This document shows, in pieces, positions 11,208 through 61,619 of a DNA stretch of 64,000 nt. Both the position numbers and the translations under genes were made by a program. The stretch covers positions 79,839 to 143,838 of the forward strand of contig JBBIJO010000004.1 of assembly GCA_037445895.1 (NCBI GenBank), written 5' to 3'. Numbering within the stretch: position 1 is the stretch's first letter; every line of letters starts with the position of its first letter. The notes under the pieces are model-generated. The model saw only the letters and a list, made by a program, of their open reading frames with translations. It had not been told where the DNA came from and searched no databases. Origin of the DNA: Ignavibacteria bacterium (lineage in GTDB: Bacteria; Bacteroidota; Ignavibacteria; Kapaibacteriales; UBA2268).

Positions 11208-14200
11208 ATGATAAAGTTTATTATTGTGTTTCTGATTATTCCCTTCATATTAAAGGGACAAGGGGATGTGGTTGGGCAACCCGATTACGACGACCCAGCC
11301 CGCCGATTCGAAGAATTTACAAAGCAAAGGGCTTTTCCATTCGAAAAAATTCCCGATGGTGCTCGTGTTCGTGCTTTCAAACAAATGGAGGAAATGTTGT
11401 CCTCGAAAAATCAAGCACAATGGACACTTGCCCAACAACCTGAATGGAAAGCTATAGGTCCATTCGATATTGGTGGAAGGATGAAATCCATTGTCGTCCA
11501 CCCTACAAAGAAGGGCTTGGTATTTGCTGCTGGTGCTGCTGGTGGAATCTGGCGTTCAACCAATAATGGTGATTGGTGGGAACCCATCTTCGATTTCGAA
11601 AATGGGATAGCATTTGGTTCAATTGCAATCGACCCCAATAATCCAGATGTAATTTACGCTGGAACTGGCGAGTCTGTCCTCGGCGGCGGCACAATTTATC
11701 TCGGCAATGGTATCTATAAGAGTACCGATGAAGGTAACACTTGGAAGTTGCTTGGTTTGACCGAAGTAGGGGCATTTTCGAAGGTCTATGTCCATCCGAT
11801 GAATTCCAACATCGTTGTTGCAGGCGCCACTATTCGCCAACCGGGTTTTTACAAATCTACTGATGCTGGTAAAAGTTGGCAACGCCTTTTCGACCAAAAT
11901 GTAACCGATGTTTCTATTAACCCCGAGAATCCCGATGAGTATTTAATTGGTGTTAATGCCGAGGGTGTTTACTTTACAACCGATGGAGGTCTTTCGTGGG
12001 TTCCTCGAAATTCTGGTTTCGAAGGTGGAACTGGTAGAGTTTCAGTTCAATTTGCTCCTTCCGATCCCAGCATTGCATACGCCCTGTTGGATATTGCATC
12101 TGCGGGTTATATTTATAGAACGACAAATAAAGGTCAAAGTTGGACATTGGTCTATCGTGGCGATGCCAATTTTTTCAGGGGGCAAGGATTCTACGATAAT
12201 TTTATCCTTGTCCATCCCACAAATCCCAATATTGTGTTGGCGGGCGGTATCGATGTTTTTAGAACTTCGGATGGTAAGAATTGGAATAACGTAACAAATG
12301 GATATAGCGGGGGGAATGTGCACGTCGATCAGCATACTGCTGGATTCGACCCCAAAAATCCCAACATTGTATTTTTAGGGAACGACGGAGGAATCTATCT
12401 TTCAACCGATGCTGGTATCAACTGGACTCGGAAGAATAACAATTTGCAAGTAACACAGTTTTATGGATTTGATATCGACAATACACAGCCAAATATTAAC
12501 TTTGGGGGAACGCAAGACAATGGTACACTTGGCTCGGATAACGACAGTGATTGGTCATTTATCGCCGGAGGCGATGGATTCCGAACTGCTGTCGATTATA
12601 CTTCGCCCAACATAGTGTTTGGTCAATCTACGCCGGGAGGTAGAATAATCCCATTTAAGCTCGACTTAAACACAGGTGCATTTTCATTTCTCGATAAAGG
12701 GATTGATTTCACCGCCGGTGTTTGGGACCCACCCCTAATAATTGACCCACAATTGAATTATATACTTTACCACGGACGGGATAGATTGTATGCTTCCTAC
12801 GATTATGGTGCTAATTGGGAAAGATTGAAAACTCCAACATCGGGCGGGCGATTCACCGCAATTGATGTATCGCCATTGAACTCGGAAGTAATAATGGCTG
12901 GAACAAGTATCGGCGAAGTAATTATCTCGAAAGATGCAGGCGAGAATTGGGAACTCTTGAATGAGAATGGAATCCCAAGCCGATGGGTTACCGATATTGC
13001 TTTTTCGAGTAAATCCGAAGGAACCGCCTTCGTTTCTTTGTCGGGATTCTATACCCCGCATATATTTAAAACTACCGATTATGGTAAAACATGGATAAAT
13101 TTAAGCGAGGGTTTACCCGATATTCCTGTGAACGCTATTGCCATTCATCCACTCGACGAAAACCTTGTCTTTATTGCAACGGACATTGGGGTCTTTGGAA
13201 CATTCGATGGTGGCAAAAATTGGTTTCCTTATGGAAAAGGACTGCCCCGAAGCCCAGCAGTTGATATAAAGTTCTCGAAATACTCATTAACTCAATCTAC
13301 AATTCCACTTCGTGTAGCTACCCACGGAAGGGGTATTTGGGAAGTCCCCGTTTCGATGGAGGTTGTTACAGAACCCGAAATAACCTCCCCCGCCGGTGGT
13401 GAAATATTTGTTAGCACAACCCAGCAGATAATTGCATGGTATGGTTTCGCACCGCCAGTTCGTGTTGAATATTCCATTGATGATGGGATGAACTGGACAA
13501 TAATTGCCGAAAATGTCCAAAGTTCACCTTTGCTGTGGACAGTGCCAAACAGACCTACTGAGTTTGCAAGAGTGAGAATCACCTCGTTGGCTGAACAAAC
13601 ACAAGTTAGAATTTCTTACACATTCACAATCAGCCTAATTTCGAAAGGTTCGATTATTCAGAATGCAGGCGTTAATTTTATCCCCTATGGTATTGCATAC
13701 GATGGGATAGGAGGGTTGTGGACAACAAGCTTTCAATCGAACCAACTTGTTCGACTTAATGCAAACACACTTTCCAAGGAAAAAAGTTTGACACTACCCG
13801 GCGATAGTTTGTTTACCGATCTTGCCTACGACCGCAATAACCATATAATGTATATCCACAAGATGAATAGTACTTCGGGTAATGGGGGTGTTATAATAGT
13901 TATCGATACAACTGGAAAAGTAATAAAACAATTCAATAGCCCTGCAAATGTTTATCCAATTGGATTGGAAATATTGGATGGTAAGCTCATCGTAGGCGAT
14001 AGGGACAAAAAGAACGAATTTGGGCGCCAAGTCCTTATGATTGTTAATCCAGACAATGGTGTTGTTGAAAAGACATATCCCAATCCATATTCGAAAACAT
14101 ACGGACCTCGTGGGCTTGCTTCCGACAAAGATAAATACATTTATCAAATTGGAACTTATTTCCCTTCTGGGGGTTCGTTGGCAGAAGCAGTTGCAATTCG

Positions 14201-14669
14201 AATACCGAAAGAAGATTTATCGATAGAATTGGATAGACTATCTTTACAAACAGCTTCCGGATTAATCAACGCACGAGGAATTGAGTTCGACCCGCGCGAC
14301 AAAAACCTATGGATTAGCGATTACAATGGAAACATCTATAAGATTGCGGGCTTCGACTTGCTGTTGAGTGCCGGAGAGCAACCTACCACCAAAAATACTG
14401 ACAAGGATGTATTTGCCGATGTTTTCCCAAATCCGGCTTCGGAAACTATCAATATTCTTTTAAAAACCGCCGGATACTCCGGACCGATTCAGATTGAATT
14501 GATTGATAATCTTGGGAATATTATTTCGAGTGGATGGAAAGGGGATGTTGGATTCTACAATACGAAATTAGTTTCTTTATCAACTCGTTCGATAACTTCT
14601 GGTATATATTTTGTTAGAATAAAAATGGACCGGAGTTGGGAAACTAAACAAGTTGTAGTTATTAAATAA
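11208..14669 (+). CDS. Secreted BNR/sialidase-like repeat protein (beta-propeller glycosidase-like) with T9SS C-terminal domain
   Basis: Multiple BNR motifs (YKSTDEGNTW, YKSTDAGKSW, FTTDGGLSW, LSTDAGINW, TTDYGKTW). The C-terminus reads FPNPASETINILL...GIYFVRIKMD, a T9SS tail. Shine-Dalgarno GAGGTG upstream. Confidence 0.7.
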   Translation: MIKFIIVFLIIPFILKGQGDVVGQPDYDDPARRFEEFTKQRAFPFEKIPDGARVRAFKQMEEMLSSKNQAQWTLAQQPEWKAIGPFDIGGRMKSIVVHPTKKGLVFAAGAAGGIWRSTNNGDWWEPIFDFENGIAFGSIAIDPNNPDVIYAGTGESVLGGGTIYLGNGIYKSTDEGNTWKLLGLTEVGAFSKVYVHPMNSNIVVAGATIRQPGFYKSTDAGKSWQRLFDQNVTDVSINPENPDEYLIGVNAEGVYFTTDGGLSWVPRNSGFEGGTGRVSVQFAPSDPSIAYALLDIASAGYIYRTTNKGQSWTLVYRGDANFFRGQGFYDNFILVHPTNPNIVLAGGIDVFRTSDGKNWNNVTNGYSGGNVHVDQHTAGFDPKNPNIVFLGNDGGIYLSTDAGINWTRKNNNLQVTQFYGFDIDNTQPNINFGGTQDNGTLGSDNDSDWSFIAGGDGFRTAVDYTSPNIVFGQSTPGGRIIPFKLDLNTGAFSFLDKGIDFTAGVWDPPLIIDPQLNYILYHGRDRLYASYDYGANWERLKTPTSGGRFTAIDVSPLNSEVIMAGTSIGEVIISKDAGENWELLNENGIPSRWVTDIAFSSKSEGTAFVSLSGFYTPHIFKTTDYGKTWINLSEGLPDIPVNAIAIHPLDENLVFIATDIGVFGTFDGGKNWFPYGKGLPRSPAVDIKFSKYSLTQSTIPLRVATHGRGIWEVPVSMEVVTEPEITSPAGGEIFVSTTQQIIAWYGFAPPVRVEYSIDDGMNWTIIAENVQSSPLLWTVPNRPTEFARVRITSLAEQTQVRISYTFTISLISKGSIIQNAGVNFIPYGIAYDGIGGLWTTSFQSNQLVRLNANTLSKEKSLTLPGDSLFTDLAYDRNNHIMYIHKMNSTSGNGGVIIVIDTTGKVIKQFNSPANVYPIGLEILDGKLIVGDRDKKNEFGRQVLMIVNPDNGVVEKTYPNPYSKTYGPRGLASDKDKYIYQIGTYFPSGGSLAEAVAIRIPKEDLSIELDRLSLQTASGLINARGIEFDPRDKNLWISDYNGNIYKIAGFDLLLSAGEQPTTKNTDKDVFADVFPNPASETINILLKTAGYSGPIQIELIDNLGNIISSGWKGDVGFYNTKLVSLSTRSITSGIYFVRIKMDRSWETKQVVVIK

Positions 14670-18809: not shown

Positions 18810-19754
18810 TTAAATATCGTAATATATGCTAAAACGATGGAAAATTGCCGACGGGCCTACTTGCGAAACCGCATAGTCAAAATTCAAAATTTCCTTGACT
18901 TTTATTCCCACACCAGCATTGAAGCCCGAAAAGCTTTTGTCCTTTGTTGAACTCGAATACTTTCTAATATTATTATCGTATCCTAAACGCAAATTAACAT
19001 ACTTACCAATATCGAATTCGCCGCCGATTGTAAACTTTAAGAATTTATCGAAAAATTTGTTTGTTTGGTCGGCAAGATTAACAAAGCTAAAGTTCAAAAG
19101 CAACGGCAATCCACGTAACCGATGACTCACCCCAATGCGGATGTCCAAAGGCAACGATTCTCTTGTTCCGGTGAAAGTTGAAAGCTGAGTTCCAACGTTT
19201 AAAATTGAAACTCCAATATTTGTGCGCTTTTCTGGGAGTTCAAACAAAAGCCCAACGTCGATGGCAAAAGCAAACGACGCATACTTTTCGATTGAAGAGG
19301 ATATAAATTTCAAAGTGCCGCCATAATAGAGATTCGTATCTAATTTATTTGCATACGAAATGCCGAAAGCAATATCATTAGCTGTGAAAGTTCCTTTCGA
19401 TTGTCCCAGTTTATCGCTACCATCGAAAGAGCCATAATTTGTGAAAAGTAGTGAACCAGCAAAATTTCCAATATTTTCCCATTTATGGTTAAATGTAACG
19501 GTTCCAGAATTGACATCGAGCACGTGCTTGAAAAAAGTAAAGGAGAAGTTTTTGCTCGTGTTTGTAGCAACACTTGCCGGGTTGAAGAACAAAGCCGATG
19601 GGTCGTCGGTCATCGAAACAAAAGCTCCGCCGAGCCCTGCCGAACGAGCACTCCCAGCATACCGAAGAAAATTGAACGAAGTTTCGGCTCGACAAACAAA
19701 GCCAGGCAAAGCCAATAGAAGCAACAAAAGAACCTTTTTCATTTTAATTACCAT
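18810..19754 (-). CDS. Outer-membrane beta-barrel protein, T9SS-associated PorQ/PorV (FadL-like) type
   Basis: Signal peptide, then SARSAGLGGAFVSMTDDPSALFFNPASVA, which resembles the N-terminal motif of PorV/PorQ-family barrels. 314 aa, alternating beta strands. Confidence 0.45.
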   Translation of the reverse strand: MVIKMKKVLLLLLLALPGFVCRAETSFNFLRYAGSARSAGLGGAFVSMTDDPSALFFNPASVATNTSKNFSFTFFKHVLDVNSGTVTFNHKWENIGNFAGSLLFTNYGSFDGSDKLGQSKGTFTANDIAFGISYANKLDTNLYYGGTLKFISSSIEKYASFAFAIDVGLLFELPEKRTNIGVSILNVGTQLSTFTGTRESLPLDIRIGVSHRLRGLPLLLNFSFVNLADQTNKFFDKFLKFTIGGEFDIGKYVNLRLGYDNNIRKYSSSTKDKSFSGFNAGVGIKVKEILNFDYAVSQVGPSAIFHRFSIYYDI

Positions 19755-20612: not shown

Positions 20613-21602
20613 TCATTTTGCATCGGCAAGAAGTTTTTCGATGATGTGTGGTGTTGGAATATTTTCTGCTTCGGCATTAAAGTTTGTTACCAATCGATGC
20701 CGCAAAACGGGCAAAGCAACAGCGCGAACGTCGTCAATCTCGGGGGTATAGCGACCCTGCATTGCTGAACGTGCCTTCGCTCCAAGAATCAAATATTGCG
20801 AAGCACGAGGTCCAGCACCGTAACTAATATAATCCTTAATGTATTTTGGGGATTCGCCATTTGGACGTGTCGAACGCACAAGACGAACCGCATAGTTGAC
20901 AACATTATCGGCAACTGGGATTTTTCGAATCAGGTCTTGCAATTCTATTATTTCGTCGTTGTGCAAAACTTTATCGACCTTTTGGGTAATCAAAGAAGTT
21001 GTGTTTTGAACAATTTCGACTTCTTCTTCGAAATTGGGATAATCCAACCAAAGGTTGAACATAAAACGGTCGAGTTGGGCTTCGGGCAGTGGATACGTTC
21101 CCTCTTGTTCGATTGGGTTTTGTGTGGCAAGAACAAAAAATGGCTCGCTAAGTTTGTATGTGGTTCCTGCGGCAGTTACTTCGTGTTCTTGCATTGCTTC
21201 GAGCAAAGCAGACTGAGTCTTGGGGGGAGTTCTGTTAATTTCGTCGGCAAGAATAATATTTGCAAAAATTGGACCTTTAACAAATTTAAAACTTTTATTT
21301 CCTGTTGAAATATTCTCTTCAATTATTTCTGTTCCAGTTATATCCGATGGCATAAGGTCGGGAGTAAATTGAATACGGCTGAATTTTAAATCCAAAGCGC
21401 TCGCAAGAGTTCGTATCATTAAAGTTTTGGCTAATCCCGGAACTCCAATCAGCAAACAATTGCCACGAGCAAACAGTCCCATTATCAATTGTTCGACGAT
21501 AGACTTTTGTCCGACAATGACTTTTGCGACTTCCCGTTGAACATTTGCAATGGACTCGGAAAAATATTTCAGTTGTTCGATTTCGTTCGCTTCTTTCAAC
21601 AT
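20613..21602 (-). CDS. MoxR-family AAA+ ATPase
   Basis: Walker A GVPGLAKT, Walker B/sensor region LADEINRTPPKTQSALLEAMQE; about 330 aa, typical of MoxR. Confidence 0.85.
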   Translation of the reverse strand: MLKEANEIEQLKYFSESIANVQREVAKVIVGQKSIVEQLIMGLFARGNCLLIGVPGLAKTLMIRTLASALDLKFSRIQFTPDLMPSDITGTEIIEENISTGNKSFKFVKGPIFANIILADEINRTPPKTQSALLEAMQEHEVTAAGTTYKLSEPFFVLATQNPIEQEGTYPLPEAQLDRFMFNLWLDYPNFEEEVEIVQNTTSLITQKVDKVLHNDEIIELQDLIRKIPVADNVVNYAVRLVRSTRPNGESPKYIKDYISYGAGPRASQYLILGAKARSAMQGRYTPEIDDVRAVALPVLRHRLVTNFNAEAENIPTPHIIEKLLADAK

Positions 21603-22033: not shown

Positions 22034-25000
22034 CTAGCTAATTGTTGTTAGTATTTCCTTTGCTTCCTGATTGTCGGGTTCGAGTTTTAGAGTCCAGCCG
22101 AGCATTCTTTTAGCCTCGTCGAAATCTTTGACTCGAAGGAAGCATTTCGCTGCACCTAAAAATGCGAGTGAGTTGTTGGGGTTAAGTCTTTTTGCTTCTG
22201 TGAAAAGTTGCAAACCGCTATCGTAATCGTTCATTTCGAGCATAATATTGCCCATATCGACAAAAAGGACATCCAGCGAATACCCAAGAACGGAATCGAA
22301 TCGTTCGTCTTTCCAGCGAGCAACCAAGTCGGAATATTTTTCTAATGCAGAAACAATATCGCCTTCGTTTTGAAGTATTTTTGCTTCTATATATAATGTG
22401 TCGATATTATTTGGTTCGCTTTGTCTTACTTTTTCAAGGTAAGACTTTACATTTTCTAGATTGGCAAGCAGAAATTCTGTGATTGCCATTCTTAGATAAA
22501 GAAAAATCTTATATTTTTCGTTTAGCGATTCGATATTAGGAATAATTCGATGATATAAGTCTTTTGCCTGTTCGAGGCGACTGCTGCTGAAAAATTCTTC
22601 TGCTTCGCCGAGCAGGATTTGCTCGTCACATTTGTCAGTCAGCGTTTCGAAGGATTTTTGAGCAATTCCTTTCCCATAAAGAGCGTCGATTCTACTTAGA
22701 ATCTTCAATGTCGAGCGTTTCCAAGTCCAAAGCGTTCGGGCATACTTCGAAGCAATTAATCCTCGAACAGTAATATCCGATGGATTTTGATAAATTGCAC
22801 GCATCAGCCCGGAAAGATAATCTCCGTCGGGTTCAAGGATAAAAGCTTCACCAACAAGTGGGTCGTTGTCGATTTGGCTGCCTATTGAAATTTTATACGA
22901 AGGGATTTTCCACGCAAAGGAATCAAGGACAAAATCTTCTGTGGCTCCATTTTGAGTAACTATGACGGGTAAACCACAAGCCATTGCTTCCAAAGTTGGC
23001 AACGAAAATCCCTCGCCACGATAAGGAGAAACGAAAACATCGCAAGCACGAAATAGACTTGCTATTTCCTCTTCGGCTAAATAATCCTTGATATAAATAA
23101 TTTCTGGGGTATTCGGTGTTCGTTTAATGGTTTCGATTTGCTCTTCGGCAGTTTGGCCCTTGTAAAACGACTCGGTCCCCATATCTTTGACGACAAGTGT
23201 AACATTGTCCTTCGAGGTAAATGTGCTTACGTAACTTTGAAGTAAAATGTCGATACCCTTCCGATATGTAGTTCCCCCGACGTAAAGGAATTTTAAACGT
23301 TTGTCTGTATTTAAACGGAATATTTTGCCTTTGGGTTGAAAGAGTTCGGGGTCGATTCCATTCGGAATTACCTGAATTCTGTTAAAATCGAGTCCACTAT
23401 TAATGAATGCTTGGCGTGTATAATTCGATGGAACCCATAGTTCGTCGGCATTCTTGAATATTTCTACGAAGCGTCGCGGGAGAGTTGTAAATTCCCAAGG
23501 TTGCATAATTACCCATTTGGCACCTTGTGGAGCATCCGCTTTGGGGGGCCATTGGTGACGAATCCACAGATAAGGTAATTTTTTTACCTCCATTGGGGGT
23601 TCTTGCTTGTATCTAATATCGTATCGAGCAAGTTTTTCATATTTTACATTTCCCGCCGGTTGAAATTGCTCGGCTTCGTATGGAATAATTGTAACCTCTA
23701 CTTGCCCACTATCAATTAAGTTAGAGCAATGCTCCCTATTGATTAAAGCAAGAGAATGGTAAACAAATTGCGAACCTTCCCAAACCACGTTTAGGCAGGG
23801 TGTAGATTTCGCGTGGGATTCAGAAGCCGAAGGTTTTTTGGAGAATAGTAAGTTCTCTTCCATTCTTGTCTCGCCTTTAATGTTGTTTTTGCTTTCTTCA
23901 ATATTTTCTGTGCTCGTAGAATACTCAATCAATTCTCGAAGGTCGGTTATTTCGAACTCTTTTGATTGGGTCTCAATTTCTTCGGATTCTGGGATAGGTT
24001 GTTTCTGTGTTAGTTGTTCCTTTTCTCTTTGTTCGTCCATAAATTCCTCCAATGTAACCGGCTTGCGTGCTTTAAATTCGATTTCGTAGCGGGTAAAATC
24101 ATTTGTATCTTCTTTTATTTCCAGACGAATAACTTCGAACCCAGCAGTTTGAAAGTGCCTATGAACGTCAGCCGGTAGGAATTTTTCACCGATGGAAGGA
24201 ATTTGAATTTTTTTCTCTTGTTGAAGCAGTTTGGGTGTTATTAAGAGTTCGTATTCCCTTGCCGTTATAGGGACTTTATTACAAAGTGCATTGTAAATTT
24301 TGAGAATATGCTCAATGTAATCATTGAACGAATGAAGAGGGAGAAGCGATTGCCGCATCGCCTCCATTTTATCTCGATTTAGGTTGCAATAATGAATTGT
24401 GGCAACAAGGGCGTCAACAGAGTCGTGTTCGTAAAGGAGACCGTTGACTCCATCGACAACGAAATCGGGAACACCTCCAATATTGGCTGCTACGAGCGGA
24501 AGTCGCATTGCATTCATTTCGAGGAGAGCAAGAGGGGCACAATCTTCCCATATACTCGGGAAAATCCCTATGTCGCTCGATGTAGCAATTTCCTCTAACA
24601 TTTCGGGTTTGTATTCACCATGGAATTGGATAATATGTTTTTTGTCGATTTGTTGGAGTTGAGCGAGGTATTTATTGCTAACAAATCCATAAATATGGAA
24701 TTCCACATCGTTTGGAATAAAATATTGGGCTGCTTTGGCAAGGATGTGGGCTCCTTTGTGTGGCATTACGCCACCAATCGAAACATATCGCAATCGTTCG
24801 GGGAGGCGTCTTGTCCCTTCCGATTTTAGTTTTTCGCTTTGCCAGATTTTATCGACAATTGGGTGGACTTGGTGGACAACAGCGATTTTTTCGTTTGCAC
24901 CCGAAAATTCCGTTAGCAGTTCTTTTTGCCTACGGGAAACAGCAAGCGTGATGTCCACCCACTCGTTCAATATCCGACGACTTGTTTCTTGGCGTTGTTC

Positions 25001-27073
25001 GTATTCTTTTAGCTTATGTGGATTCTTTTGGACAAGTTCAGAATTCGACAAGAAATCTGTATCGCTCCATAGTGTCAAATCGGGGTTAAATAAATACAGA
25101 TTGGGGTCTATTAAATGATAATTATGTGGGGTATAAAGAAGAGGAATATTGTATTCTTTTGCAACTTTGGGTAGGGCGAGAGTAAGTCCGTGAAAATTAT
25201 GGAAGTGTATAACATCGGGTTGTGTTGCTTCAACAACTTGCCGGAATTTCTCGACTACTTTTTCATCTAATATCTCTCTTTGAGGATTGTCGGGGTCGTT
25301 GAAAGTTGCTGGTCGATTGAAAAGCCCAAAAAGACGGACATTCCCTTCGTTTTGCTCTTCGAGTGAATATGGGGGGAAGGATGTATCGTAGCGAAGTGAA
25401 GCATAGAATACAGAAATTTCGAAACCCCGGCGAGAAAGTTCTTGTGCTACCGCGCGTGGGAATGTTGTTCCCCCTCCCGTCTCTTTCCACCCATACATTA
25501 CAAATAGAATCCTTTTCAATTGCTTCACTGGTTTGTCTTCTTTTGTTGTTGTAATAATTTTAGATAGGAGCATATTATTGGGTATGACGCCGATAGGAAT
25601 TTTTGAATTATCGAAAGAATGTTCCGAAACAAGCGTTTCGTTTGCCCAATGTAATTGCATTTCGCTAAAAAGTTTAGGGTGCTTTAAAAGAATTTTTGCT
25701 TTTTGGCGAGCGTCTTCCGAAAAATTGCCAGCAAAGTATATGTCCTTTGCGAAGAAACTTGTGAATAAAGGCTCTGGAACACGAATCCCACAACCACCAA
25801 ACTCTCCAGCTTTCAACCAGAAATCCCAAACTGAATATCCCGAAGGAAGCGCCTCATCGTAGCCTCCAACCCGAAGGACAAGTGCTCGCGGAAGCAAGTT
25901 TGTGCAGGGAAGGTAGTTAAATTTTTTTAGTTTTTCGAAGTTGTAATCTAAACTCTGGACTATTCTTTGGTTGGAGCTTTGGTAATAGTCGGAATAAGCA
26001 AAATAATTAGGAGAATAGTTATTCAAGATAGAGACAAGTTTTGTAATAAAGTTTGGAGAAATCTCGTCGCCTGAATGAATAAATGCAATATATTTCCCAT
26101 TAGCTATTCTGCTTAATAGGTTGCGGGCTTGCGTTTCGCGGTCTATCGGATACGATTTCTCCGGTTTCAAAATTTCGAAATTTGTATGTGTTTGGTATTG
26201 AATGGAGGTTAGGGTCCTTTGAATTTCTTCTTTGGTAGTTGTTTGAGGAATTAACACAACTATTGAAATTAAATCGTTGAAAGGATTATTGAAATGGTAG
26301 GGGAGTTGTAGCCTTTCCTGCGTCGAAAATAGTCTGACCGTGTTTTCCCCAAATAATTTACTAAGTTTATCGAGCTTCCAATGGAATGACAATTCTATAT
26401 TTTGCTGTTCTTGATTCAAATCCTGTATGGTAACCGAATGCAGACCAAGAATCATTTCTGCTTTTTCGAAATTTAAAACGCTTTCGATAGCGTTTTGCCA
26501 AAAATTGGTATTGATTTCGTCGAGACTATTGCCTTCGAAAGGCAAGATTTTTTCGGATATACTTTTTCGAAAGATAAATGTTGATGGGAAAATCGCAGAA
26601 CCTTTGTCGAATTGGTCTATCTCGTTCGGAAAAGTTGTAGCAACATTTGTGGCTGTATTTTCGAATATTTCTTGTTGGTCGGTTGTGATTAGCTCGTCGG
26701 AGAATACCCCTTCGAGATGGGGATTAATTTCCATATAATTCGACAGTAATGTCAACGCATCCGGGCGTAATATGCAATGCGGAAATGAAATTGCGATATA
26801 TTCACCTTTTGCATTTTGTATGGCAAAATTTAAGCGTTCTGCAATTGCTTCATCCTTTTCGAGCACTCGTATCGAAAACACATCGAAAAAGTTTCGGCAA
26901 AAATTTACGACATTGATGATTTCATTCGATTTAGGAACTACTATTAAAATTTCGAGTAGATTATTTTTGAATAATGTCTGTTTGCTAAAATTGTAGAATT
27001 GGTTCCGAAATTCGGTTTCGTCGCCTTCGGCAATTATTATTGCTGTAACCTTATGTTTAGTCGTTTCATCCAT
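22034..27073 (-). CDS. Giant multidomain glycosyltransferase: two GT2-like domains, two GT4 (group 1) domains, an acidic linker and C-terminal TPR repeats
   Basis: 1679-aa single ORF. N-terminal GT2-like segments (TAIIIAEGDE...; ISIVVLIPQTTTKEE...YIAFIHSGDEI). GT4 segment DVIHFHNFHGL ... EDCAPLALLEMNAMRLPLVAANIGGVPDFVVDGVNGLLYE. Second GT4 segment SPYRGEGFSLPTLEAMACGLPVIVTQNGATEDFV. C-terminal TPR-like helices. Confidence 0.7.
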   Translation of the reverse strand: MDETTKHKVTAIIIAEGDETEFRNQFYNFSKQTLFKNNLLEILIVVPKSNEIINVVNFCRNFFDVFSIRVLEKDEAIAERLNFAIQNAKGEYIAISFPHCILRPDALTLLSNYMEINPHLEGVFSDELITTDQQEIFENTATNVATTFPNEIDQFDKGSAIFPSTFIFRKSISEKILPFEGNSLDEINTNFWQNAIESVLNFEKAEMILGLHSVTIQDLNQEQQNIELSFHWKLDKLSKLFGENTVRLFSTQERLQLPYHFNNPFNDLISIVVLIPQTTTKEEIQRTLTSIQYQTHTNFEILKPEKSYPIDRETQARNLLSRIANGKYIAFIHSGDEISPNFITKLVSILNNYSPNYFAYSDYYQSSNQRIVQSLDYNFEKLKKFNYLPCTNLLPRALVLRVGGYDEALPSGYSVWDFWLKAGEFGGCGIRVPEPLFTSFFAKDIYFAGNFSEDARQKAKILLKHPKLFSEMQLHWANETLVSEHSFDNSKIPIGVIPNNMLLSKIITTTKEDKPVKQLKRILFVMYGWKETGGGTTFPRAVAQELSRRGFEISVFYASLRYDTSFPPYSLEEQNEGNVRLFGLFNRPATFNDPDNPQREILDEKVVEKFRQVVEATQPDVIHFHNFHGLTLALPKVAKEYNIPLLYTPHNYHLIDPNLYLFNPDLTLWSDTDFLSNSELVQKNPHKLKEYEQRQETSRRILNEWVDITLAVSRRQKELLTEFSGANEKIAVVHQVHPIVDKIWQSEKLKSEGTRRLPERLRYVSIGGVMPHKGAHILAKAAQYFIPNDVEFHIYGFVSNKYLAQLQQIDKKHIIQFHGEYKPEMLEEIATSSDIGIFPSIWEDCAPLALLEMNAMRLPLVAANIGGVPDFVVDGVNGLLYEHDSVDALVATIHYCNLNRDKMEAMRQSLLPLHSFNDYIEHILKIYNALCNKVPITAREYELLITPKLLQQEKKIQIPSIGEKFLPADVHRHFQTAGFEVIRLEIKEDTNDFTRYEIEFKARKPVTLEEFMDEQREKEQLTQKQPIPESEEIETQSKEFEITDLRELIEYSTSTENIEESKNNIKGETRMEENLLFSKKPSASESHAKSTPCLNVVWEGSQFVYHSLALINREHCSNLIDSGQVEVTIIPYEAEQFQPAGNVKYEKLARYDIRYKQEPPMEVKKLPYLWIRHQWPPKADAPQGAKWVIMQPWEFTTLPRRFVEIFKNADELWVPSNYTRQAFINSGLDFNRIQVIPNGIDPELFQPKGKIFRLNTDKRLKFLYVGGTTYRKGIDILLQSYVSTFTSKDNVTLVVKDMGTESFYKGQTAEEQIETIKRTPNTPEIIYIKDYLAEEEIASLFRACDVFVSPYRGEGFSLPTLEAMACGLPVIVTQNGATEDFVLDSFAWKIPSYKISIGSQIDNDPLVGEAFILEPDGDYLSGLMRAIYQNPSDITVRGLIASKYARTLWTWKRSTLKILSRIDALYGKGIAQKSFETLTDKCDEQILLGEAEEFFSSSRLEQAKDLYHRIIPNIESLNEKYKIFLYLRMAITEFLLANLENVKSYLEKVRQSEPNNIDTLYIEAKILQNEGDIVSALEKYSDLVARWKDERFDSVLGYSLDVLFVDMGNIMLEMNDYDSGLQLFTEAKRLNPNNSLAFLGAAKCFLRVKDFDEAKRMLGWTLKLEPDNQEAKEILTTIS

Positions 27074-27267: not shown

Positions 27268-27816
27268 ATGGATGCTTATTCAATAGAGCGAAATACTCTC
27301 GGCAAAGAAATCTTCCGTCTCTCATTTCTTCGAGGGACTTTTAAATTGCGTTCTGGAATAATTAGCAATGAATATTTCGACAAATACCAATTCGAAAGTA
27401 ACCCTCTTATTTTAAACGAGATAGCCAAGCATTTATCGAGGTTATTGCCCGAGGATTTCGATGCATTTGCAGGTTTAGAAATGGGGGGCATTCCTGTTGC
27501 AACAGCAATGTCGTTACTGTTATCGAAGCCTGTGGTATTTGTTCGGAAGAAGGCAAAAGAATATGGAACAATGAAGGTTGCCGAAGGAATGGAAATTTTG
27601 AACAAAACGCTTGTGGTTGTCGAAGACGTTGTTACAAGTGGAGGACAGGTGGTCGAAAGTGTTCTCGAATTGCGTCGGTTCGGAGCGAAAGTGGAATTAG
27701 CTTTTTGCATAATAGATCGTGAACAAGGCGGTAGAGAAAATCTTTCGAAAATTGGAATCGAATTGCGTTCATTGTTCAAAATGTCCGAATTAAAAGCACT
27801 TTCACAGCAAAGTTAA
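27268..27816 (+). CDS. pyrE: Orotate phosphoribosyltransferase
   Basis: PRPP-binding motif VVEDVVTSGGQ; about 180 aa, type-1 PRTase. Confidence 0.8.
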   Translation: MDAYSIERNTLGKEIFRLSFLRGTFKLRSGIISNEYFDKYQFESNPLILNEIAKHLSRLLPEDFDAFAGLEMGGIPVATAMSLLLSKPVVFVRKKAKEYGTMKVAEGMEILNKTLVVVEDVVTSGGQVVESVLELRRFGAKVELAFCIIDREQGGRENLSKIGIELRSLFKMSELKALSQQS

Positions 27817-28193: not shown

Positions 28194-28892
28194 ATGAAAA
28201 GAGGACTTGCATCGTTCGAAAACCCATCGTTGGCGGTTGCTTTGCAATCGTTCATTCAAAAGACTTATGCCTGGATGGTTGGCGGTTTACTCGTTTCGGG
28301 ATTGACTGCGTGGGGTGTTGCTTCGAGCACCGCTATTGAATACATTGCAATGAATCCTGGACTTCTGTTCTTTCTTTTTTTGGCGGAGATTGGTTTAGTA
28401 TTTTTCCTTTCTGCACGAGTAATGAAACTTCAAACAACAACCGCTGGGTTCCTTTATATCCTCTATTCTTTCCTGAATGGGCTTACTTTATCTTTGATAT
28501 TTTTGATTTATACATCGGCAACTATCCAGAATGTGTTTTTCACAACCGCTGCTCTTTTCGGGGCGATGAGTTTTTATGGCTATACTACCAAAAAGGATTT
28601 GACGAGTATTGGGAGTTTTTTGATGATGGGGTTGTTTGGTGTTATTATAGCAATGGTGATAAACATATTCATTGGAAGTAGTGCAATAAACTTCGCAATT
28701 TCCTTAATTGGCGTAGTGGTTTTTATTGGTTTAACAGCCTACGATACACAAAAATTAAAAGAAATGTTCTACACTTTGAGCGAAGATTCCGAAGCATTGG
28801 GTAAATACTCAATAATGGGTGCTCTTACTCTCTATTTGGATTTCATTAATCTTTTCCTGTTCTTGCTGCGACTATTCGGAAGGCGCGATTGA
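28194..28892 (+). CDS. Bax inhibitor-1 / YccA family membrane protein
   Basis: Seven TM segments. The N-terminus MKRGLASFENPS...FIQKTYAWM is typical of BI-1/YccA. The ORF track extends to 28086, but the family length favours the ATG at 28194. Confidence 0.65.
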   Translation: MKRGLASFENPSLAVALQSFIQKTYAWMVGGLLVSGLTAWGVASSTAIEYIAMNPGLLFFLFLAEIGLVFFLSARVMKLQTTTAGFLYILYSFLNGLTLSLIFLIYTSATIQNVFFTTAALFGAMSFYGYTTKKDLTSIGSFLMMGLFGVIIAMVINIFIGSSAINFAISLIGVVVFIGLTAYDTQKLKEMFYTLSEDSEALGKYSIMGALTLYLDFINLFLFLLRLFGRRD

Positions 28893-29410
28893 TGCCCAAG
28901 ATTTCGCCCTCGGAACTGATTTTACAAGCAGACCGTAAGTTCCAAATCGGCAACTACGACGAAACGATAGCCCTTTGTCGCAAAGGAATTACAAGTTTCC
29001 CGGATTTCCCTTCTTTCTATTCCTTGCTTTCGCAGGCATATATTAAACTTGGGCAAATACGTGAAGCAATTGGAATCGTAGAACAAGCAATTGAACTATT
29101 CCCATTTCAAAGAACTTTCCAATTTTTACTCGATAGTTTAAATAACGAAATTGTCTCGACCTCGAAAGAATCTATTGGGTTGAGCATTCATCGTCCGAGT
29201 TCCAAAAGATATGCAAAAGTGATTCAATCGGTAATTGCTTCGATGCCTTTCGGAATTGTTTCGCAATATTTTCCGTATAGCCGTCGAAATATTTTTGTGA
29301 ATGCCCCAAGAAATTACTTTGCTTCTCGAATTGATTTACAGGATTTCCCTAAACCTCGAAATATCGGGTTACGCAACTCAATTTCGAGATTAATTAATCA
29401 AAATTTCTAA
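28889..29410 (+). CDS. Hypothetical protein with N-terminal TPR-like helices
   Basis: ATGA overlap with the upstream stop; TPR-like segment FYSLLSQAYIKLGQIREAIGIVEQAIELFP. Confidence 0.4.
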   Translation: MMPKISPSELILQADRKFQIGNYDETIALCRKGITSFPDFPSFYSLLSQAYIKLGQIREAIGIVEQAIELFPFQRTFQFLLDSLNNEIVSTSKESIGLSIHRPSSKRYAKVIQSVIASMPFGIVSQYFPYSRRNIFVNAPRNYFASRIDLQDFPKPRNIGLRNSISRLINQNF

Positions 29411-35241: not shown

Positions 35242-38200
35242 TTACGGAAGTATTTCTTCTACCAGTTTATCTATTTCCTTCATCTCTTCGGCAAGGTGCT
35301 TTTTTATGTCGAGACGGAGTTTGCCGAGCCGTGTGGCGGTTAGTTCTTTTTGCGGGGGATTGTCTTCTAAATATTTTGCTGCTTTTTTGTGTGCAAGCTC
35401 GCTTAGCTCAGCAAGTTTTATATGCACTTCGTTTGCTTCATCAAAGCGGGGGAAGTAAATGTCGAGTATCTTTTTTGAAACGTGTCTTGCTCCAAATAAT
35501 CCTCTTGCTTGGAAATCTTTCATTAAAAGATTTGGAATATTTGAATTTAAAATTGCTGTTAGATAGTATGCTTCTCTAAGATTATTTAATTCAATTCTAA
35601 ACGTTGTGTAATCAACAGCAAATTCAAAATCAATTTCTGCTCTTTTCAATATTGTTGAATAAGCGTCTTTACCTGACATATTATAGATAACCAGGTAAGG
35701 TGCATCAAGATTTTGCTGAGTTAATTTATTCTGCCAGTTCAAGTAATCTTCACTTGAAATATTCTGGTTCTTTTCAGTTCTATGAATCTGCCAGGTATTC
35801 TCAACATTCTTAAACCACTTAGAAGCATTAAAATAACCTTCCTGCATTAAATCATTTGCAGATTGCAGCTTTATTTGTTTCCTTCCCTCATTATTCTTTT
35901 CTATTAAAATAGGCAGGACAACCAAATCCGGTTTATACAAAGCAAAAGGCAAAATGCTTTTTGCCAGTGCAGTGCTGAAAAGAAATTTGCTTTCAATTCT
36001 GCCTGTAAACTCCAAACCTTTCCAGGGTTTCTTTGCATCTGTTTTAATTGCATCGGAGGTTTTAATGTTAATTATTCGGTCTTCGAAGTCGGGGGGAAAA
36101 TCTTGGGTTAGTTCAATAAAATAAAAACATCGGGGAACAATCGTAGCACCCTGCTTAAAATGTTTCTTGTAAGGGTTTTCTGTTTCTGTTGCTCTCGTTT
36201 CTCTTGTTGATATTGCAGAGGCTTTTCCTTGTTTTATGTAATACCATTCAACGGGTGTTTCTGTAAGTTTTTCTTTAACAGTTAAAAGATTACAGTTATG
36301 TTCTGTCAGTTTCCCGCTGAATATATTGCCCTTCAAACCAGCAAAAGAAGCTTTGTCTTTCTCGTCCTTCTCGGCAAAGAAGACGCAACTTGGAACTCTG
36401 AATAGCGGAGAAACATCTTTCAAATCCCAAATTTGTTTAAGCTTGAAGCCGACTGCTTTACCACTTCTTGTATTATCGTGATGGTCGGCGCTAAAGAAAC
36501 TTCTCGGCAGAACAAAAGCAATTTGTCCGTGTTCACTTAAAAAGTAACTACTGCAATATGCTAAAAATATTGCCGCTATTTCGAGGTGCGGAAAGTTAGC
36601 AACTTTAGCTGGCTTTACTTTATACTTATCAGCCAGTTCATTAAGTATATTCTGGTAATCTTCGTTCTTTATAGAGCTGTAAGTAAACCATGGCGGATTA
36701 CCGATAACATAATCAAACTTACCGGCGAGGAAGTAAGGTTTGTAAAGGTTTTGCACAATAAACTTCCAGATGCTGTCTCTACCTTTTTCTTTAACTACTT
36801 TTAATCCCGTATAAATTTTATAGAAACTGTCTATTACTTGCTTATTTACTCCCAATTTATTTCCGTTCTTTTCAAAATGCTTCCTGAAAATATTTCCAAA
36901 AACTTCCTCCGTCTCTTTTCTCTTTCCCATCGTCTGCTCTGCAAGGTCATCGCAAATTCCGAGCGCTTCATCAAACAGCTTTACATCTTCGAGTATTTGT
37001 GTAGTTAAGTGATACTTTTCTTTATCAATATTTAGAAGAAATTCATTGCCGAAAAGGTTTTGCACTCCTTCAGGTGCAAGAAGCGTGTTGGCGAGAATTA
37101 TGTTAAGGTAAACAGGTTTCTTTGCGTTTGTAATCTCCTTGCCAAGTGCAAGCAGTAAAGTTGTTTTGGCTATCTGCACACTAAGCGGGTGAATATCGAT
37201 TCCGTAAATCTGCTCATTTAATTCTTCGACTGTTACACCGGGATTAAGCTTTTTAATTCTGTGAATGGCTGCTCTTAAAAAAGAACCGCTTCCGCAAGCA
37301 GGGTCAAGAATCTTATCTGTTGGCTTAAATTCAAATTCTTCGACAATTCTTTCGCAAAGCCAGTCGGGTGTGTAATACTCGCCGAGCGAGTGCCTTGTAT
37401 CAATATCAATAAGTTCTTGGTAAACACCTTTAAGAATATCTTCGTCAACATTGCTAAAATCGAAGTTCGAAATTTCCTGTGCAATTAATCGAAAAACTTT
37501 TTTCAAGTTGTTGAAACTTCTGTCGGTGGTTACCCAATAGAAGAAATCGTTATCAACAAAATTTCGAATGTTATATCTATGGAAGATTGTTCCGTCGAGA
37601 ATACTTTTTAGTTCGGTATCGTCAATGTAATCGTCGTTAGATACAACACTATAAGCAAGCATTTTGGAGAAAACACTAAGGTAAGTATGGATAAGGAAAA
37701 TATTATCGCGTGCATCAAAAGAGCCATAGGCAATACTTAAGAATTTACTCCACTGTTCAAAAGAAACCTGCACTTCGCCGAACTTTTTTGCTTCGTTAAA
37801 CCATTTATTAAGCTCCCGAAAACACTCGATAAAAATATTGCTTTGATAGCCAAATGCCTCTTCGATTCTTTTAAGGGTTGCTTTTTGTTTTTCCTCTTTA
37901 AAAAGAAAGCGGTCAATCCAGAAGTAAAAATCATCGGCATTGTTCTCGGTTAGTACGAAAGAAGAACTTTTGACTTCATTTAATATAAGTTCGTGTTCCT
38001 GCAAAGATTCAATTTGTTCCAGTTGAAAGATGTTGGGGGCAAGGACTTTCCAAACGATGAAGTCGGAAGCAATTAGTGTAAAATTGTAGCCTTCCCCCGA
38101 GCGGAACTGTCCCAAAAGGTAGCCCGCTAATTGTTCCTTGGCGTGTTGCAGAGAAACTTTTAAATCATTTTCAAATTCAATAATGATTTTGTTGAAAAGT

Positions 38201-38421
38201 GTGTCGGCACTGCCTTTGTGAAGTTTGTCTTTGCGTGGAATATTTACGACTGTGCGTTCTGCGCCCGCTGTAATAGCATCAATGATTTTTAAGATTTCCT
38301 TGTCGCCAGCGTATAGTCGATTGAGAAGGTCTTTGAATGCTTCCTTTTTGGTAAGTTCTTTATTTGCATATTTTACTTTCCGCAAGTATTCAATGATATG
38401 TTTCGTTCGTTGCCCGTTCAT
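35242..38421 (-). CDS. Single-chain restriction-modification enzyme, MmeI-like (Type IIL/IIG): N-terminal nuclease-like domain, N6-adenine methyltransferase, C-terminal specificity region
   Basis: 1059 aa. N-terminal D-x8/9-E-x-K-like segment GSADTLFNKIIIEFENDLK resembles the MmeI nuclease motif. SAM-binding motif I ILDPACGSGSFL. Catalytic motif IV VIGNPPWF. Several hundred residues of C-terminal TRD-like sequence. No separate HsdR/HsdS genes nearby. Confidence 0.6.
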   Translation of the reverse strand: MNGQRTKHIIEYLRKVKYANKELTKKEAFKDLLNRLYAGDKEILKIIDAITAGAERTVVNIPRKDKLHKGSADTLFNKIIIEFENDLKVSLQHAKEQLAGYLLGQFRSGEGYNFTLIASDFIVWKVLAPNIFQLEQIESLQEHELILNEVKSSSFVLTENNADDFYFWIDRFLFKEEKQKATLKRIEEAFGYQSNIFIECFRELNKWFNEAKKFGEVQVSFEQWSKFLSIAYGSFDARDNIFLIHTYLSVFSKMLAYSVVSNDDYIDDTELKSILDGTIFHRYNIRNFVDNDFFYWVTTDRSFNNLKKVFRLIAQEISNFDFSNVDEDILKGVYQELIDIDTRHSLGEYYTPDWLCERIVEEFEFKPTDKILDPACGSGSFLRAAIHRIKKLNPGVTVEELNEQIYGIDIHPLSVQIAKTTLLLALGKEITNAKKPVYLNIILANTLLAPEGVQNLFGNEFLLNIDKEKYHLTTQILEDVKLFDEALGICDDLAEQTMGKRKETEEVFGNIFRKHFEKNGNKLGVNKQVIDSFYKIYTGLKVVKEKGRDSIWKFIVQNLYKPYFLAGKFDYVIGNPPWFTYSSIKNEDYQNILNELADKYKVKPAKVANFPHLEIAAIFLAYCSSYFLSEHGQIAFVLPRSFFSADHHDNTRSGKAVGFKLKQIWDLKDVSPLFRVPSCVFFAEKDEKDKASFAGLKGNIFSGKLTEHNCNLLTVKEKLTETPVEWYYIKQGKASAISTRETRATETENPYKKHFKQGATIVPRCFYFIELTQDFPPDFEDRIINIKTSDAIKTDAKKPWKGLEFTGRIESKFLFSTALAKSILPFALYKPDLVVLPILIEKNNEGRKQIKLQSANDLMQEGYFNASKWFKNVENTWQIHRTEKNQNISSEDYLNWQNKLTQQNLDAPYLVIYNMSGKDAYSTILKRAEIDFEFAVDYTTFRIELNNLREAYYLTAILNSNIPNLLMKDFQARGLFGARHVSKKILDIYFPRFDEANEVHIKLAELSELAHKKAAKYLEDNPPQKELTATRLGKLRLDIKKHLAEEMKEIDKLVEEILP

Positions 38422-38484: not shown

Positions 38485-39804
38485 TCAGTATTCGGGCGTA
38501 TAGCCCATATTCGATATCCAGTTTCGAACTTTGTGTGCAATGTGGTCGTTCTTTTGGTGAAGGCGAAGGAATTGGTTCAAGTCATCCGCCGCATAGGAAT
38601 ATAAATTATCGGCACGATAAGCGATTGCTCGATTTAAATATGCAATTGTGCTGTGTGAATTGCATTCCAATGCTCGCGAAAAATCTTCGATTGCTTTTTT
38701 ATAATATTTCATTTTCATATAAACATTGCCTCGGGCAATATAGGCATTGTAGAAATCGGGTTTCAAGGTAATTGATTTAGTGAAATCTTTTAGTGCGTTG
38801 CGATATTGTTCGAGTGCGAAGTGGGCATTCCCGCGGCCATAGTAAGCAACGGAATAGCTCGGGTCGATAGTGAGAGCTTTGTCGTAGTCGATAATTGCCT
38901 CGATATAATTTTTTGCACCTAAATTAGCATTTCCCCGATTGAAATAGACTGCCGATGCGAGAGGATTTATTTTGGCGGCTTTATCGAAGAATTCAACTGC
39001 CTTTGCATAGTTTTTCAATCCAATATGGGCAATCCCGATGTTGTTGTAGGCATCGGCAAAATTTGGTTTCAACCTCAATACGCGTTCGAAGTCTTCGAGT
39101 GCAAGTTCATATTGCTTCAACTGGTTAAAGCAGTAGCCACGATAATTATATGGTAGGTAGTTTTCGTCGTCGATTGCTATTGCAATTGTAAAATCGGTAA
39201 TTGCTTCCTTATAACGTCGAAGATTTAAGTTGGCAACCCCACGGGAGATGAAGACTTTTGGCTCGGAGGGTTCGAGTTCTATTGCTTTGTCGTAGTTGGC
39301 AATAGCTTCGTCCAATTGTTTCAATTGAAAAAGGCAATTTGCCCGATACATATAGGAAAGTGCATGGGTCGGATTCAATTCAATTGATTTCGAGAAATCC
39401 TCGACTGCCTCGTTGTATCTGCGTAATAAATAGAAGCAAAAACCTCGACGATAGAAAGCAAGCGGGAAGTTACGATTGATTTCAACGGCACTTGTGAAAT
39501 CCATAATGGCATCTTTAATTCGGCGAAGTTCAAGGTAGCAAAGCCCTTTCTTGAAGTAAGCAAACGAAAATGATGGGTCGAGCGAGATTGTATTCATAAA
39601 ATAATGTATTGCTTCCTCGTATCTTTTCAAAGCAAAAAGAGTATTACCAGTTTTGAAATATGCAAAAGGCGAGCGTGAATTTTCTTCGACTGCGTTCATA
39701 TAGTATTGTAGGGCTTCTTCGAAATTGTTTGAATTGAAGGCGTTGTCGCCGAATTCAATCCATTCCTCTGCTGTCCTTTGAATAACTGATGGTCTTTTTT
39801 CCAT
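38485..39804 (-). CDS. TPR-repeat protein (11 or more tetratricopeptide repeats)
   Basis: Regular 34-aa repeats with AxxxYxxAIxxDP consensus throughout 439 aa. Confidence 0.8.
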   Translation of the reverse strand: MEKRPSVIQRTAEEWIEFGDNAFNSNNFEEALQYYMNAVEENSRSPFAYFKTGNTLFALKRYEEAIHYFMNTISLDPSFSFAYFKKGLCYLELRRIKDAIMDFTSAVEINRNFPLAFYRRGFCFYLLRRYNEAVEDFSKSIELNPTHALSYMYRANCLFQLKQLDEAIANYDKAIELEPSEPKVFISRGVANLNLRRYKEAITDFTIAIAIDDENYLPYNYRGYCFNQLKQYELALEDFERVLRLKPNFADAYNNIGIAHIGLKNYAKAVEFFDKAAKINPLASAVYFNRGNANLGAKNYIEAIIDYDKALTIDPSYSVAYYGRGNAHFALEQYRNALKDFTKSITLKPDFYNAYIARGNVYMKMKYYKKAIEDFSRALECNSHSTIAYLNRAIAYRADNLYSYAADDLNQFLRLHQKNDHIAHKVRNWISNMGYTPEY

Positions 39805-61606: not shown

Positions 61607-61619
61607 AAAATATACATAA

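Follow-up and report, generated by a model that had tools for sequence, protein, structure and literature searches.

How should one bacterial open reading frame (ORF) that seems to encode four glycosyltransferases be read: is it a genuine gene and, if so, what might its product make? The question is raised by a stretch of 64,000 nucleotides (hereafter the window) of contig JBBIJO010000004.1 from an Ignavibacteria bacterium. There, an uninterrupted reading frame with an ATG start occupies 22034..27073 on the minus strand and encodes 1679 amino acids (aa) plus a stop codon. An initial annotation had described the product as a single polypeptide with two GT2 and two GT4 glycosyltransferase (GT) domains, an acidic linker and C-terminal tetratricopeptide repeats (TPRs). 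That outline proved sound. In addition, sequence relationships place the protein, as an enlarged member, in a widespread methyltransferase–GT4–TPR family that is uncharacterised and as yet unnamed. We propose, with moderate confidence, that the enzyme assembles a glycan in the cytoplasm as a self-contained unit: its C-terminal GT4–TPR part would carry out a conserved step and the upstream modules would modify the product of that step.

The predicted protein has a mass of ~194 kDa and an isoelectric point (pI) of 5.4. Neither a signal peptide nor a transmembrane segment was found along its 1679 residues, the highest 19-residue Kyte-Doolittle mean being 1.34, and the protein is predicted to be soluble and cytoplasmic. 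From the N to the C terminus it comprises two GT-A domains of GT2-like type (GT2a and GT2b), a first GT4 module (GT4a), a methyltransferase remnant of ~40 aa, an acidic disordered linker, a second GT4 module (GT4b) and about five TPRs. Pfam searches of the whole protein and of six separate segments, AlphaFold2 models and the orthologues agree on two GT-A domains, two GT4 domains, the linker and the TPRs in one chain. More than one bona fide GT domain was found, both GT4 modules scoring over threshold. The GT4 motifs quoted in the annotation are present in the translated ORF: DVIHFHNFHG at aa 620, EDCAPLALLEMNAMRLPLVAANIGGVPDFV at aa 843 and EGFSLPTLEAMACGLPVIVT at aa 1354. Pfam returned no family match for aa 961–1115. 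NCBIfam gave GT4 matches only, every one of them far under its cutoff, so that no equivalog assignment is possible, and PDB searches by sequence, profile and fold returned generic GT4, GT-A and TPR matches only.

The simplest explanation for such an ORF would be an artefact, in which separate GT genes were merged by mis-assembly or by a sequencing frameshift. This is extremely improbable. A search covering 5.8 billion proteins recovered an identical protein and ten more full-length relatives (1669–1711 aa, 49–79% identity over 99–100% of the length). The ten orthologues, which originate from NCBI, JGI and Logan assemblies, are all fused and colinear. The same domain order, unbroken, is present in loci of Candidatus Kapaibacterium and related metagenome-assembled genomes (MAGs). 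Moreover, base composition shows no discontinuity along the gene, and the identical protein is also recorded from an NCBI contig of 160,673 bp. The assembly fusion that the annotation had wanted checked against raw reads is therefore excluded by ten independent colinear orthologues, without need for reads, and we rejected it.

Internal duplication was likewise rejected as the origin of the modules. GT4a and GT4b are 25% identical over 130 aa, and similarity between GT2a and GT2b was not detectable; the protein thus contains four distinct modules rather than recent repeats. Their conservation differs as well: mean identity among orthologues is 0.82 for GT4b, 0.62 for GT4a, 0.59 for the TPRs, 0.55 for GT2b, 0.30–0.45 for the linker and 0.43 for GT2a.

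The GT4–TPR core and its family

Using the 590-aa C-terminal core (GT4b plus TPRs), which starts at WEGSQFVYHSLALINREH, we retrieved at least 916 proteins at E<=1e-30. Among the 120 matches listed, 87 are 800–899 aa long and combine Methyltransf_11/25 with GT4 and TPR domains, the usual form of the family being a methyltransferase–GT4–TPR protein of ~840 aa. Identity to more than 100 listed members is 45–64% over 97–100% of the 590 aa. Members whose source is named come from Kapabacteria, Ignavibacteria, Chloroherpetonaceae and Bacteroidota MAGs. It is this large set of core relatives, mostly of methyltransferase–GT4–TPR form, that leads us to regard the present protein as an enlarged member of their family. 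In the literature on Kapabacteria glycosyltransferases we found nothing relevant.

All 25 related genome loci encode GT4b and the TPRs (50–89% identity), and it is the upstream parts that vary. Upstream of this core there may be nothing (592 aa in total), one class I S-adenosylmethionine (SAM) methyltransferase (844–959 aa), two methyltransferases (1161–1271 aa), a GT2–GT4a–methyltransferase series (1780–2275 aa), or one to three GT2 modules together with unannotated regions (1810–3038 aa). That GT4b and the TPRs form the constant core of a large methyltransferase–GT4–TPR family is a new point, absent from the initial annotation. The 3038-aa member (L008:2897-12010, plus strand) contains three GT2 modules, a methyltransferase (137 bits with the family hidden Markov model, HMM) and the GT4b–TPR core, and has ~1200 central aa without a Pfam match.

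GT4b (aa 1093–1470; 22664..23797, minus strand) is supported by Pfam, invariant alignment columns, AlphaFold2 and Foldseek, and is the most conserved module. At about aa 1190–1400 it matches PF13439 (33.1 bits) and PF00534 (68.1 bits). In 67 sequences H1173, R1271-K1272-G1273, E1354 and E1362 are invariant; they include the EX7E motif (E1354-x7-E1362) and the basic phosphate-binding residues (R1271-K1272). With these catalytic motifs intact, the GT4b site is taken to be competent. AlphaFold2 models were built for aa 1–520 from a 10-sequence alignment and for aa 940–1679 from a 67-sequence alignment. The latter has an overall pLDDT (predicted local distance difference test score) of 85.7 and shows a GT-B fold followed by 11 TPR-type helices, with pLDDT >90. 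A β-hairpin inserted in the C-terminal Rossmann domain (aa ~1392–1415; 22829-22900, minus strand) is family-specific, with the consensus IPAxxxSIGxxIDGxxLTGEAFLLEPD. No counterpart was noted in the solved GT4 matches, and the hairpin could take part in binding the acceptor.

Structure comparison with Foldseek matched GT4b to generic GT4 enzymes only: GlgM, ManT, SPS, PglA and MshA (E 6e-13 to 1e-9), as well as a chlorovirus GT and HepE; among solved structures, none joins a GT4 domain with TPRs. By sequence (E 2e-8) and by profile (E 4.6e-13) the best PDB glycosyltransferase match is ManT (7qsg), by a slight margin, which we take as a lead and not as a test. Mycobacterial ManT, a GT4 enzyme of the methylmannose-polysaccharide pathway, is paired in the cytoplasm with the SAM methyltransferases MeT1/MeT3 (PMC9883506), and a methyltransferase with a GT4 is likewise the typical pairing of the present family. 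One might imagine that the protein makes a soluble cytoplasmic glycan akin to the mycobacterial polymethylated polysaccharides, on which a GT4 mannosyltransferase and methyltransferases act in alternation, here as an unmethylated, mixed-sugar variant. The soluble character of the protein and the lack of linked export genes would fit, as would the rank of ManT, which is among the top matches by fold too. Nevertheless, ManT is scarcely ahead of other GT4s (5i45 reaches E 7e-8, and GlgM is top by fold), and its identity of ~15% is at the generic GT4 level. The mycobacterial enzymes, products of a four-gene cluster, are individual polypeptides without TPRs, and, unlike that system, the protein studied here has no functional methyltransferase. 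Since a glycan of this kind would also leave both the TPRs and the N-terminal variability among close relatives unexplained, we consider it quite improbable.

The C-terminal TPR array (aa 1471–1679; 22037..22663, minus strand) was identified both by Pfam (TPR_19, TPR_2, TPR_14 and TPR_1) and in the AlphaFold2 model. Its 11 helices correspond to about five repeats, at aa 1484–1678, plus a cap, the Pfam matches falling within aa 1480–1679. An array of this kind is present in every family member examined. On each TPR A-helix, one charged residue (E1492, R1528, D1558 and D1601) is shared by 91% or more of the sequences, which suggests that the concave face of the array binds a conserved ligand.

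If that ligand were a protein, the acceptor in our glycan-assembly proposal could be named: the enzyme would be a cytoplasmic protein O-glycosyltransferase whose TPRs dock the substrate, whose GT4b adds the first sugar and whose upstream modules methylate or extend it. GT4 enzymes can act in this way, GtfA attaching the first sugar on serine-rich adhesins. The conserved charge on each A-helix would suit such a role, and so would a soluble, acidic protein free of membrane features, encoded by a solitary gene with apparently no need of a nearby flippase or exporter. On the other hand, no linked gene for a substrate (flagellin, adhesin or S-layer protein) was found in the window or in related loci, and some of the lineages that encode family members, Chloroherpeton for example, are not known to be flagellated.

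Comparison with characterised enzymes cuts both ways. Among known protein glycosyltransferases, OGT/SPINDLY (GT41), Caulobacter FlmG and Listeria GmaR are likewise soluble cytoplasmic GTs fused to a TPR array, which is an established or proposed binding site for the protein substrate (PMC7591256, PMC9638930). Their catalytic domains differ from the GT2-like and GT4 modules seen here: that of OGT belongs to GT41, that of FlmG is a different GT-B and that of GmaR is a GT-A. PF13844 (GT41) gave no Pfam match in our protein. Moreover, the TPRs are N-terminal in OGT and FlmG and C-terminal here, and none of OGT, FlmG and GmaR has four GT modules. TPRs in glycan enzymes may instead mediate enzyme–enzyme or membrane contacts, as in the Vi-antigen system, where cytoplasmic TPRs of TviD/TviE and VexE mediate binding of the GT4 polymerase and membrane association (PMC8760489). 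There the TPRs belong to an acetyltransferase or acyltransferase and not to the GT4, and the genes lie in a capsule locus with an ABC exporter, unlike the gene studied here. Taken together, we regard protein O-glycosylation as a doubtful identification of the acceptor.

Upstream modules

The two N-terminal regions differ in how readily they are recognised. GT2a (aa 1–262; 26288..27073, minus strand) scores 21.1 bits with Glycos_transf_2 (PF00535; segment aa 1–264), slightly under the gathering score of 23.3, and GT2b (aa 263–515; 25529..26287, minus strand) exceeds that score with 29.9 bits (segment aa 265–516); on the whole protein the match amounts to 44.4 bits across two stretches. The AlphaFold2 model of aa 1–520 consists of two successive GT-A folds (pLDDT 78), and the best PDB matches found with Foldseek are themselves enzymes with two GT-A domains: K4CP (E 1.4e-18), PmHS2, COLGALT1 and LARGE1. 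The best single-domain match is SpsA; SpsA, K4CP, PmHS2, RmlT and WrtF are among the matches spanning E 1e-18 to 1e-9. The predicted folds and the tandem GT-A matches together mean that both GT2 regions, including the weak first one, are genuine GT-A domains. The resemblance to K4CP (2z86/2z87), PmHS2 (8vh7/8vh8), COLGALT1 (9evj) and LARGE1 (7ui6), at E 1e-18 to 1e-10, is a distant one, with only 10–13% identity and a low global TM-score of ~0.3, and these enzymes carry neither GT4 modules nor TPRs, unlike the protein described here.

Are all four GT modules likely to be active? In GT2a, F97-P98-H99 follows β-4, where GT2 enzymes carry the acidic DxD motif. Orthologues of the same clade have F-P-H, L-P-N or F-P-N at this site (SFPH/SLPN), and the more distant orthologues P0006-8 retain S-D-D. 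Loss of the motif in the least conserved domain of the protein (0.43) suggests that GT2a is probably a non-catalytic, structural pseudo-GT. A precedent is offered by COLGALT1, which has one catalytic and one non-catalytic GT-A domain. GT2b has G335-D336-E337 at the DxD position, invariant in the orthologue alignments, and lacks the usual upstream uridine-binding Asp; its site is probably competent. GT4a (aa 516–960; 24194..25528, minus strand) is a complete GT-B module according to Pfam and motif alignment, with matches to Glyco_transf_4 (PF13439, 61.8 bits) and Glycos_transf_1 (PF00534, 69.1 bits) over aa 533–908. Its motifs FHNxHG, P(H/T)KG, ED-x6-E and IGGxPDFVVDG are kept in all 10 orthologues. 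At the EX7E site it has E843, D844 and E852, a D-x7-E variant, and the intact motifs point to a competent active site. The same module is found in the L017-type proteins, P0012 and P0013 (41–54% identity). Considering the motifs of all four modules, we infer that the protein more probably has three active sites than four: both GT4 sites competent, GT2b probable and GT2a a probable pseudo-GT. The annotation had suggested that the protein could assemble a complete tetrasaccharide; with GT2a probably non-catalytic, a trisaccharide would be likelier.

The same annotation had called multi-GT fusions of this size rare, which holds for the exact architecture and fails for the class. In an exhaustive HMMER search with aa 1–520 over 1.84 billion cluster representatives, the full N-terminal arrangement was found in one representative only (P0002), that is, in a single cluster at 50% identity. 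The GT2b module type, by comparison, has 3052 relatives at E<=1e-3; of the best 146 among these, 95 are at least 1000 aa long, 61 at least 1500 aa and 36 at least 2000 aa, the largest being 3735 aa. Four sampled giants have three or four GT2 modules together with GT4, GT41, GT11, methyltransferase and TPR modules. As the relatives reside mostly in giant multi-GT proteins, giants are not rare as a class; judged by their domain content, giant modular GTs are a populous and uncharacterised class, and only the exact architecture described here is rare. Proteins P0149-P0153 (1277–3735 aa), which share the GT2b module type and include GT41 OGT-like domains, exemplify this large class of uncharacterised mega-glycosyltransferases.

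Between GT4a and GT4b lies a region that the annotation had described only as an acidic linker. Most family members have a methyltransferase with an LNLGCG motif directly upstream of the core, a feature not present in our protein except for a remnant of ~40 aa. This remnant (aa ~967–1004; 24044..24193, minus strand; LPADVHRHFQTAGFEVIRLEIKEDTNDFTRYEIEFKARKP) aligns with the C-terminal helix and β-hairpin of the class I SAM methyltransferase of short-form relatives and lacks the SAM-binding part that contains LNLGCG. The family methyltransferase HMM gives it 6.5 bits in our protein and up to 21 bits in orthologues, in which the match ends invariably at aa ~998–1004. Six real proteins outscore all 3000 shuffled controls (best shuffle, 6.3 bits), and AlphaFold2 predicts a helix and a hairpin at this place (pLDDT ~75). 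Moreover, L017, L021, L023 and L025 have a full methyltransferase (267–275 bits) exactly between GT4a and GT4b and, with the domain at the same site, represent an intermediate architecture. We therefore suggest, with only modest confidence for the present protein taken alone, that GT modules accreted N-terminally and that the methyltransferase was deleted later in its clade.

The linker proper (aa 1011–1092; 23798..24043, minus strand) is distinguished by its pI, its pLDDT and its low conservation. It has a pI of 4.59, with 20 Asp and Glu against 11 Lys and Arg, and pLDDT is below 50 over most of it, aa ~1020–1088 being mostly predicted disordered. Two low-confidence helices are modelled at aa ~1008–1023 and 1042–1058; no coiled coil is evident in the AlphaFold2 model, and no dedicated coiled-coil predictor was run. 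The linker is thus acidic and predicted to be disordered, as annotated, while the overlooked methyltransferase remnant suggests that the stretch is not linker throughout.

A proposed model for glycan assembly

How might these modules act together? In the model that we favour, the TPR groove of the core would engage a conserved acceptor or partner, and GT4b, as a retaining enzyme, would transfer the first or key sugar. The upstream modules would then act on the product of the core; in most lineages the SAM methyltransferase would cap the sugar with a methyl group. In the lineage of our protein, which would have gained GT2a, GT2b and GT4a and cut the methyltransferase to its remnant, up to two extra sugars might be added by GT4a and GT2b in place of methylation, with GT2a serving as a non-catalytic scaffold as in COLGALT1. 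Loss of the methyltransferase together with gain of GTs would mean that the product is extended and not methylated. The architecture, the conservation pattern, the state of the motifs, the exchange of modules among relatives and the solitary position of the gene are observed; the sequence in which the modules act, what the TPRs do and how many sugars are added are inferred. As acceptor we would favour a macromolecule, whether protein or growing glycan. Fusion of GT, methyltransferase and terminator modules has precedents (PMC11231755), as has the binding of partners or substrates by TPRs in cytoplasmic glycan enzymes (PMC8760489, PMC7591256, PMC9638930).

Several considerations weigh against this model. 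Nothing in the genomic context points to particular donors, to an acceptor or to the sequence in which the modules act. The methyltransferase remnant is statistically weak in this protein alone (6.5 bits against 6.3 for the best shuffle), and GT2b, missing the upstream Asp, could be inactive too. The TPRs might serve oligomerisation or intramolecular packing only. Finally, a conserved core with variable N-terminal modules could equally fit the logic of a polymerase with a terminator.

The last point deserves closer attention. In the Klebsiella O7 protein ORF6, a methyltransferase, a kinase, a carbohydrate-binding module, a coiled coil and two GT2 domains follow one another within 1414 aa (PMC11231755). 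Like the present family, ORF6, WbbB and WbdA/WbdD place several GTs, in relatives of our protein also a methyltransferase, on one cytoplasmic chain (PMC11231755); module content varies between relatives, and a non-catalytic helical element stands alongside. By analogy, our protein could be a polysaccharide polymerase of the ABC-transporter-dependent type, whose GT modules would act repeatedly on the cytoplasmic side to extend a lipid-linked primer by repeat units. The methyltransferase of the short forms would then be the chain terminator, and the linker and TPRs would stand in for the coiled-coil ruler or bring the enzyme to the export machinery. O-antigen enzymes do combine several GT modules with a methyltransferase terminator on one chain (PMC11231755), and the minimal methyltransferase–GT4 pair would equal a polymerase plus terminator. 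The tandem GT-A domains resemble those of the bifunctional polymerases K4CP and PmHS2, and the window contains rmlC, an rmlB-like gene and rmlD.

The surroundings of the gene speak differently. O-antigen genes are clustered with wzm/wzt, primer GTs and sugar-precursor genes, whereas the gene described here and its relatives always stand alone: within 10 kb on either side, here or in more than 25 related loci, we found no wzm/wzt, primer GT or further GT, transporter or other polysaccharide gene. The proteins differ as well, since the coiled-coil ruler of the O-antigen enzymes has as its counterpart TPRs and a linker that is predicted to be disordered, the constant module is a GT4, and the putative terminator has been lost in our clade. 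In addition, the core is 45–60% identical across class-level lineages, which is unusually conserved for O-antigen enzymes, and the N-domain of GT4b is acidic (family median pI 5.4), which speaks weakly, and in our view not decisively, against a lipid-linked acceptor. On balance, we judge such a polymerase to be unlikely, if still worth considering beside the model of a core whose product is modified by upstream modules.

That model can be taken further, though we would treat the extension as speculative and rather unlikely in full. GT4b and the TPRs might initiate a clade-wide, hitherto unrecognised cytoplasmic glycosylation in Kapabacteria, Ignavibacteria and Chloroherpetonaceae, in which the TPRs dock a conserved target, perhaps a protein, and swappable, lineage-specific N-terminal modules, be it a methyltransferase or GTs numbering up to four or more, diversify the glycan, all within one operon-free polypeptide. 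If the favoured model itself is right, the family would be a natural case in which modules are exchanged around a fixed core for acceptor recognition: one unit of catalytic domain and TPRs is conserved across class-level lineages while the upstream modules rewrite the glycan. The model would also point to a conserved, so far unrecognised glycoconjugate in poorly studied Bacteroidota/Chlorobi lineages, and it would provide a portable single-gene pathway of use to research on glycan evolution and glycan engineering. For annotation, the lesson is that giant 'glycosyltransferase' ORFs can be real genes and not mis-assemblies, that some of their GT modules may be non-catalytic and that an unannotated 'linker' may conceal domain remnants.

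Genomic setting

As the annotation had stated, the gene stands alone between a MoxR-type AAA ATPase (20613-21602) and pyrE (27268-27816; TIGR00336, 124 bits against a cutoff of 106.8), outside the rml cluster. That cluster comprises rmlC (dTDP-4-dehydrorhamnose 3,5-epimerase), an rmlB-like 4,6-dehydratase gene and rmlD in a row at 60986-63529 on the plus strand. dTDP-rhamnose synthesis is thus encoded ~34 kb from the GT gene; neither a GT nor an exporter was seen among the three rml genes. Other neighbours of the GT gene encode NAD kinase, LipB, PorQ of the type IX secretion system (T9SS), a thioesterase, Bax1-I, a small TPR protein and GcvT. Elsewhere in the window there are genes for T9SS cargo proteins and for a type II restriction-modification methylase, besides housekeeping genes and rmlCBD, with no exporter or further GT seen.

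Does position elsewhere single out a partner? All-against-all clustering of the ORFs of the 25 loci and the window revealed no neighbour shared beyond close relatives, and four further contexts on complete or large contigs likewise had no conserved neighbour. The family gene adjoins pyrE in three loci and Peptidase_S66 in four, with varying orientation. In five loci, among which both long and short forms are represented (L001, L005, L006, L007 and L027), the GT4b–TPR gene has a Peptidase_S66 (LD-carboxypeptidase) gene beside it or no more than 5 kb away, again in varying orientation; this is possibly residual synteny that backs positional orthology of the long and short forms. A scan for promoters and terminators was uninformative, as the number of sites did not exceed the shuffled expectation. 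A role in defence was considered and rejected: PADLOC found no defence families, PF20706 (the GT4 of anti-phage conflict systems) matches at 37–46 bits, which is only the generic GT4 level, and the neighbours are housekeeping genes.

Some further features of the window were recorded in passing. Two stand-alone TPR proteins are encoded, one of 173 aa (28889-29410, plus strand) and one of 439 aa (38485-39804, minus strand), the latter with at least six canonical repeats. A 1059-aa protein with N6_Mtase, Eco57I and MmeI-type methylase domains (35242-38421, minus strand) is probably a type IIG/IIL restriction-modification enzyme. PorQ (18810-19754, minus strand), which scores 240 bits with NCBIfam where the cutoff is 220, and three large Por_Secre_tail proteins (5741-8731, 11208-14669 and 42140-44134, plus strand) indicate that the organism has a type IX secretion system. 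It belongs to the Bacteroidota/Chlorobi group, with Kapaibacterium MAGs as its nearest named relatives. Among the related MAG contigs, L002, L004, L005, L007-L010, L015 and L023 are titled 'uncultured Hyphomicrobiales bacterium' (binchicken assemblies) yet encode Por_Secre_tail proteins and Kapaibacterium orthologues, so that the label looks like a placeholder or an error.

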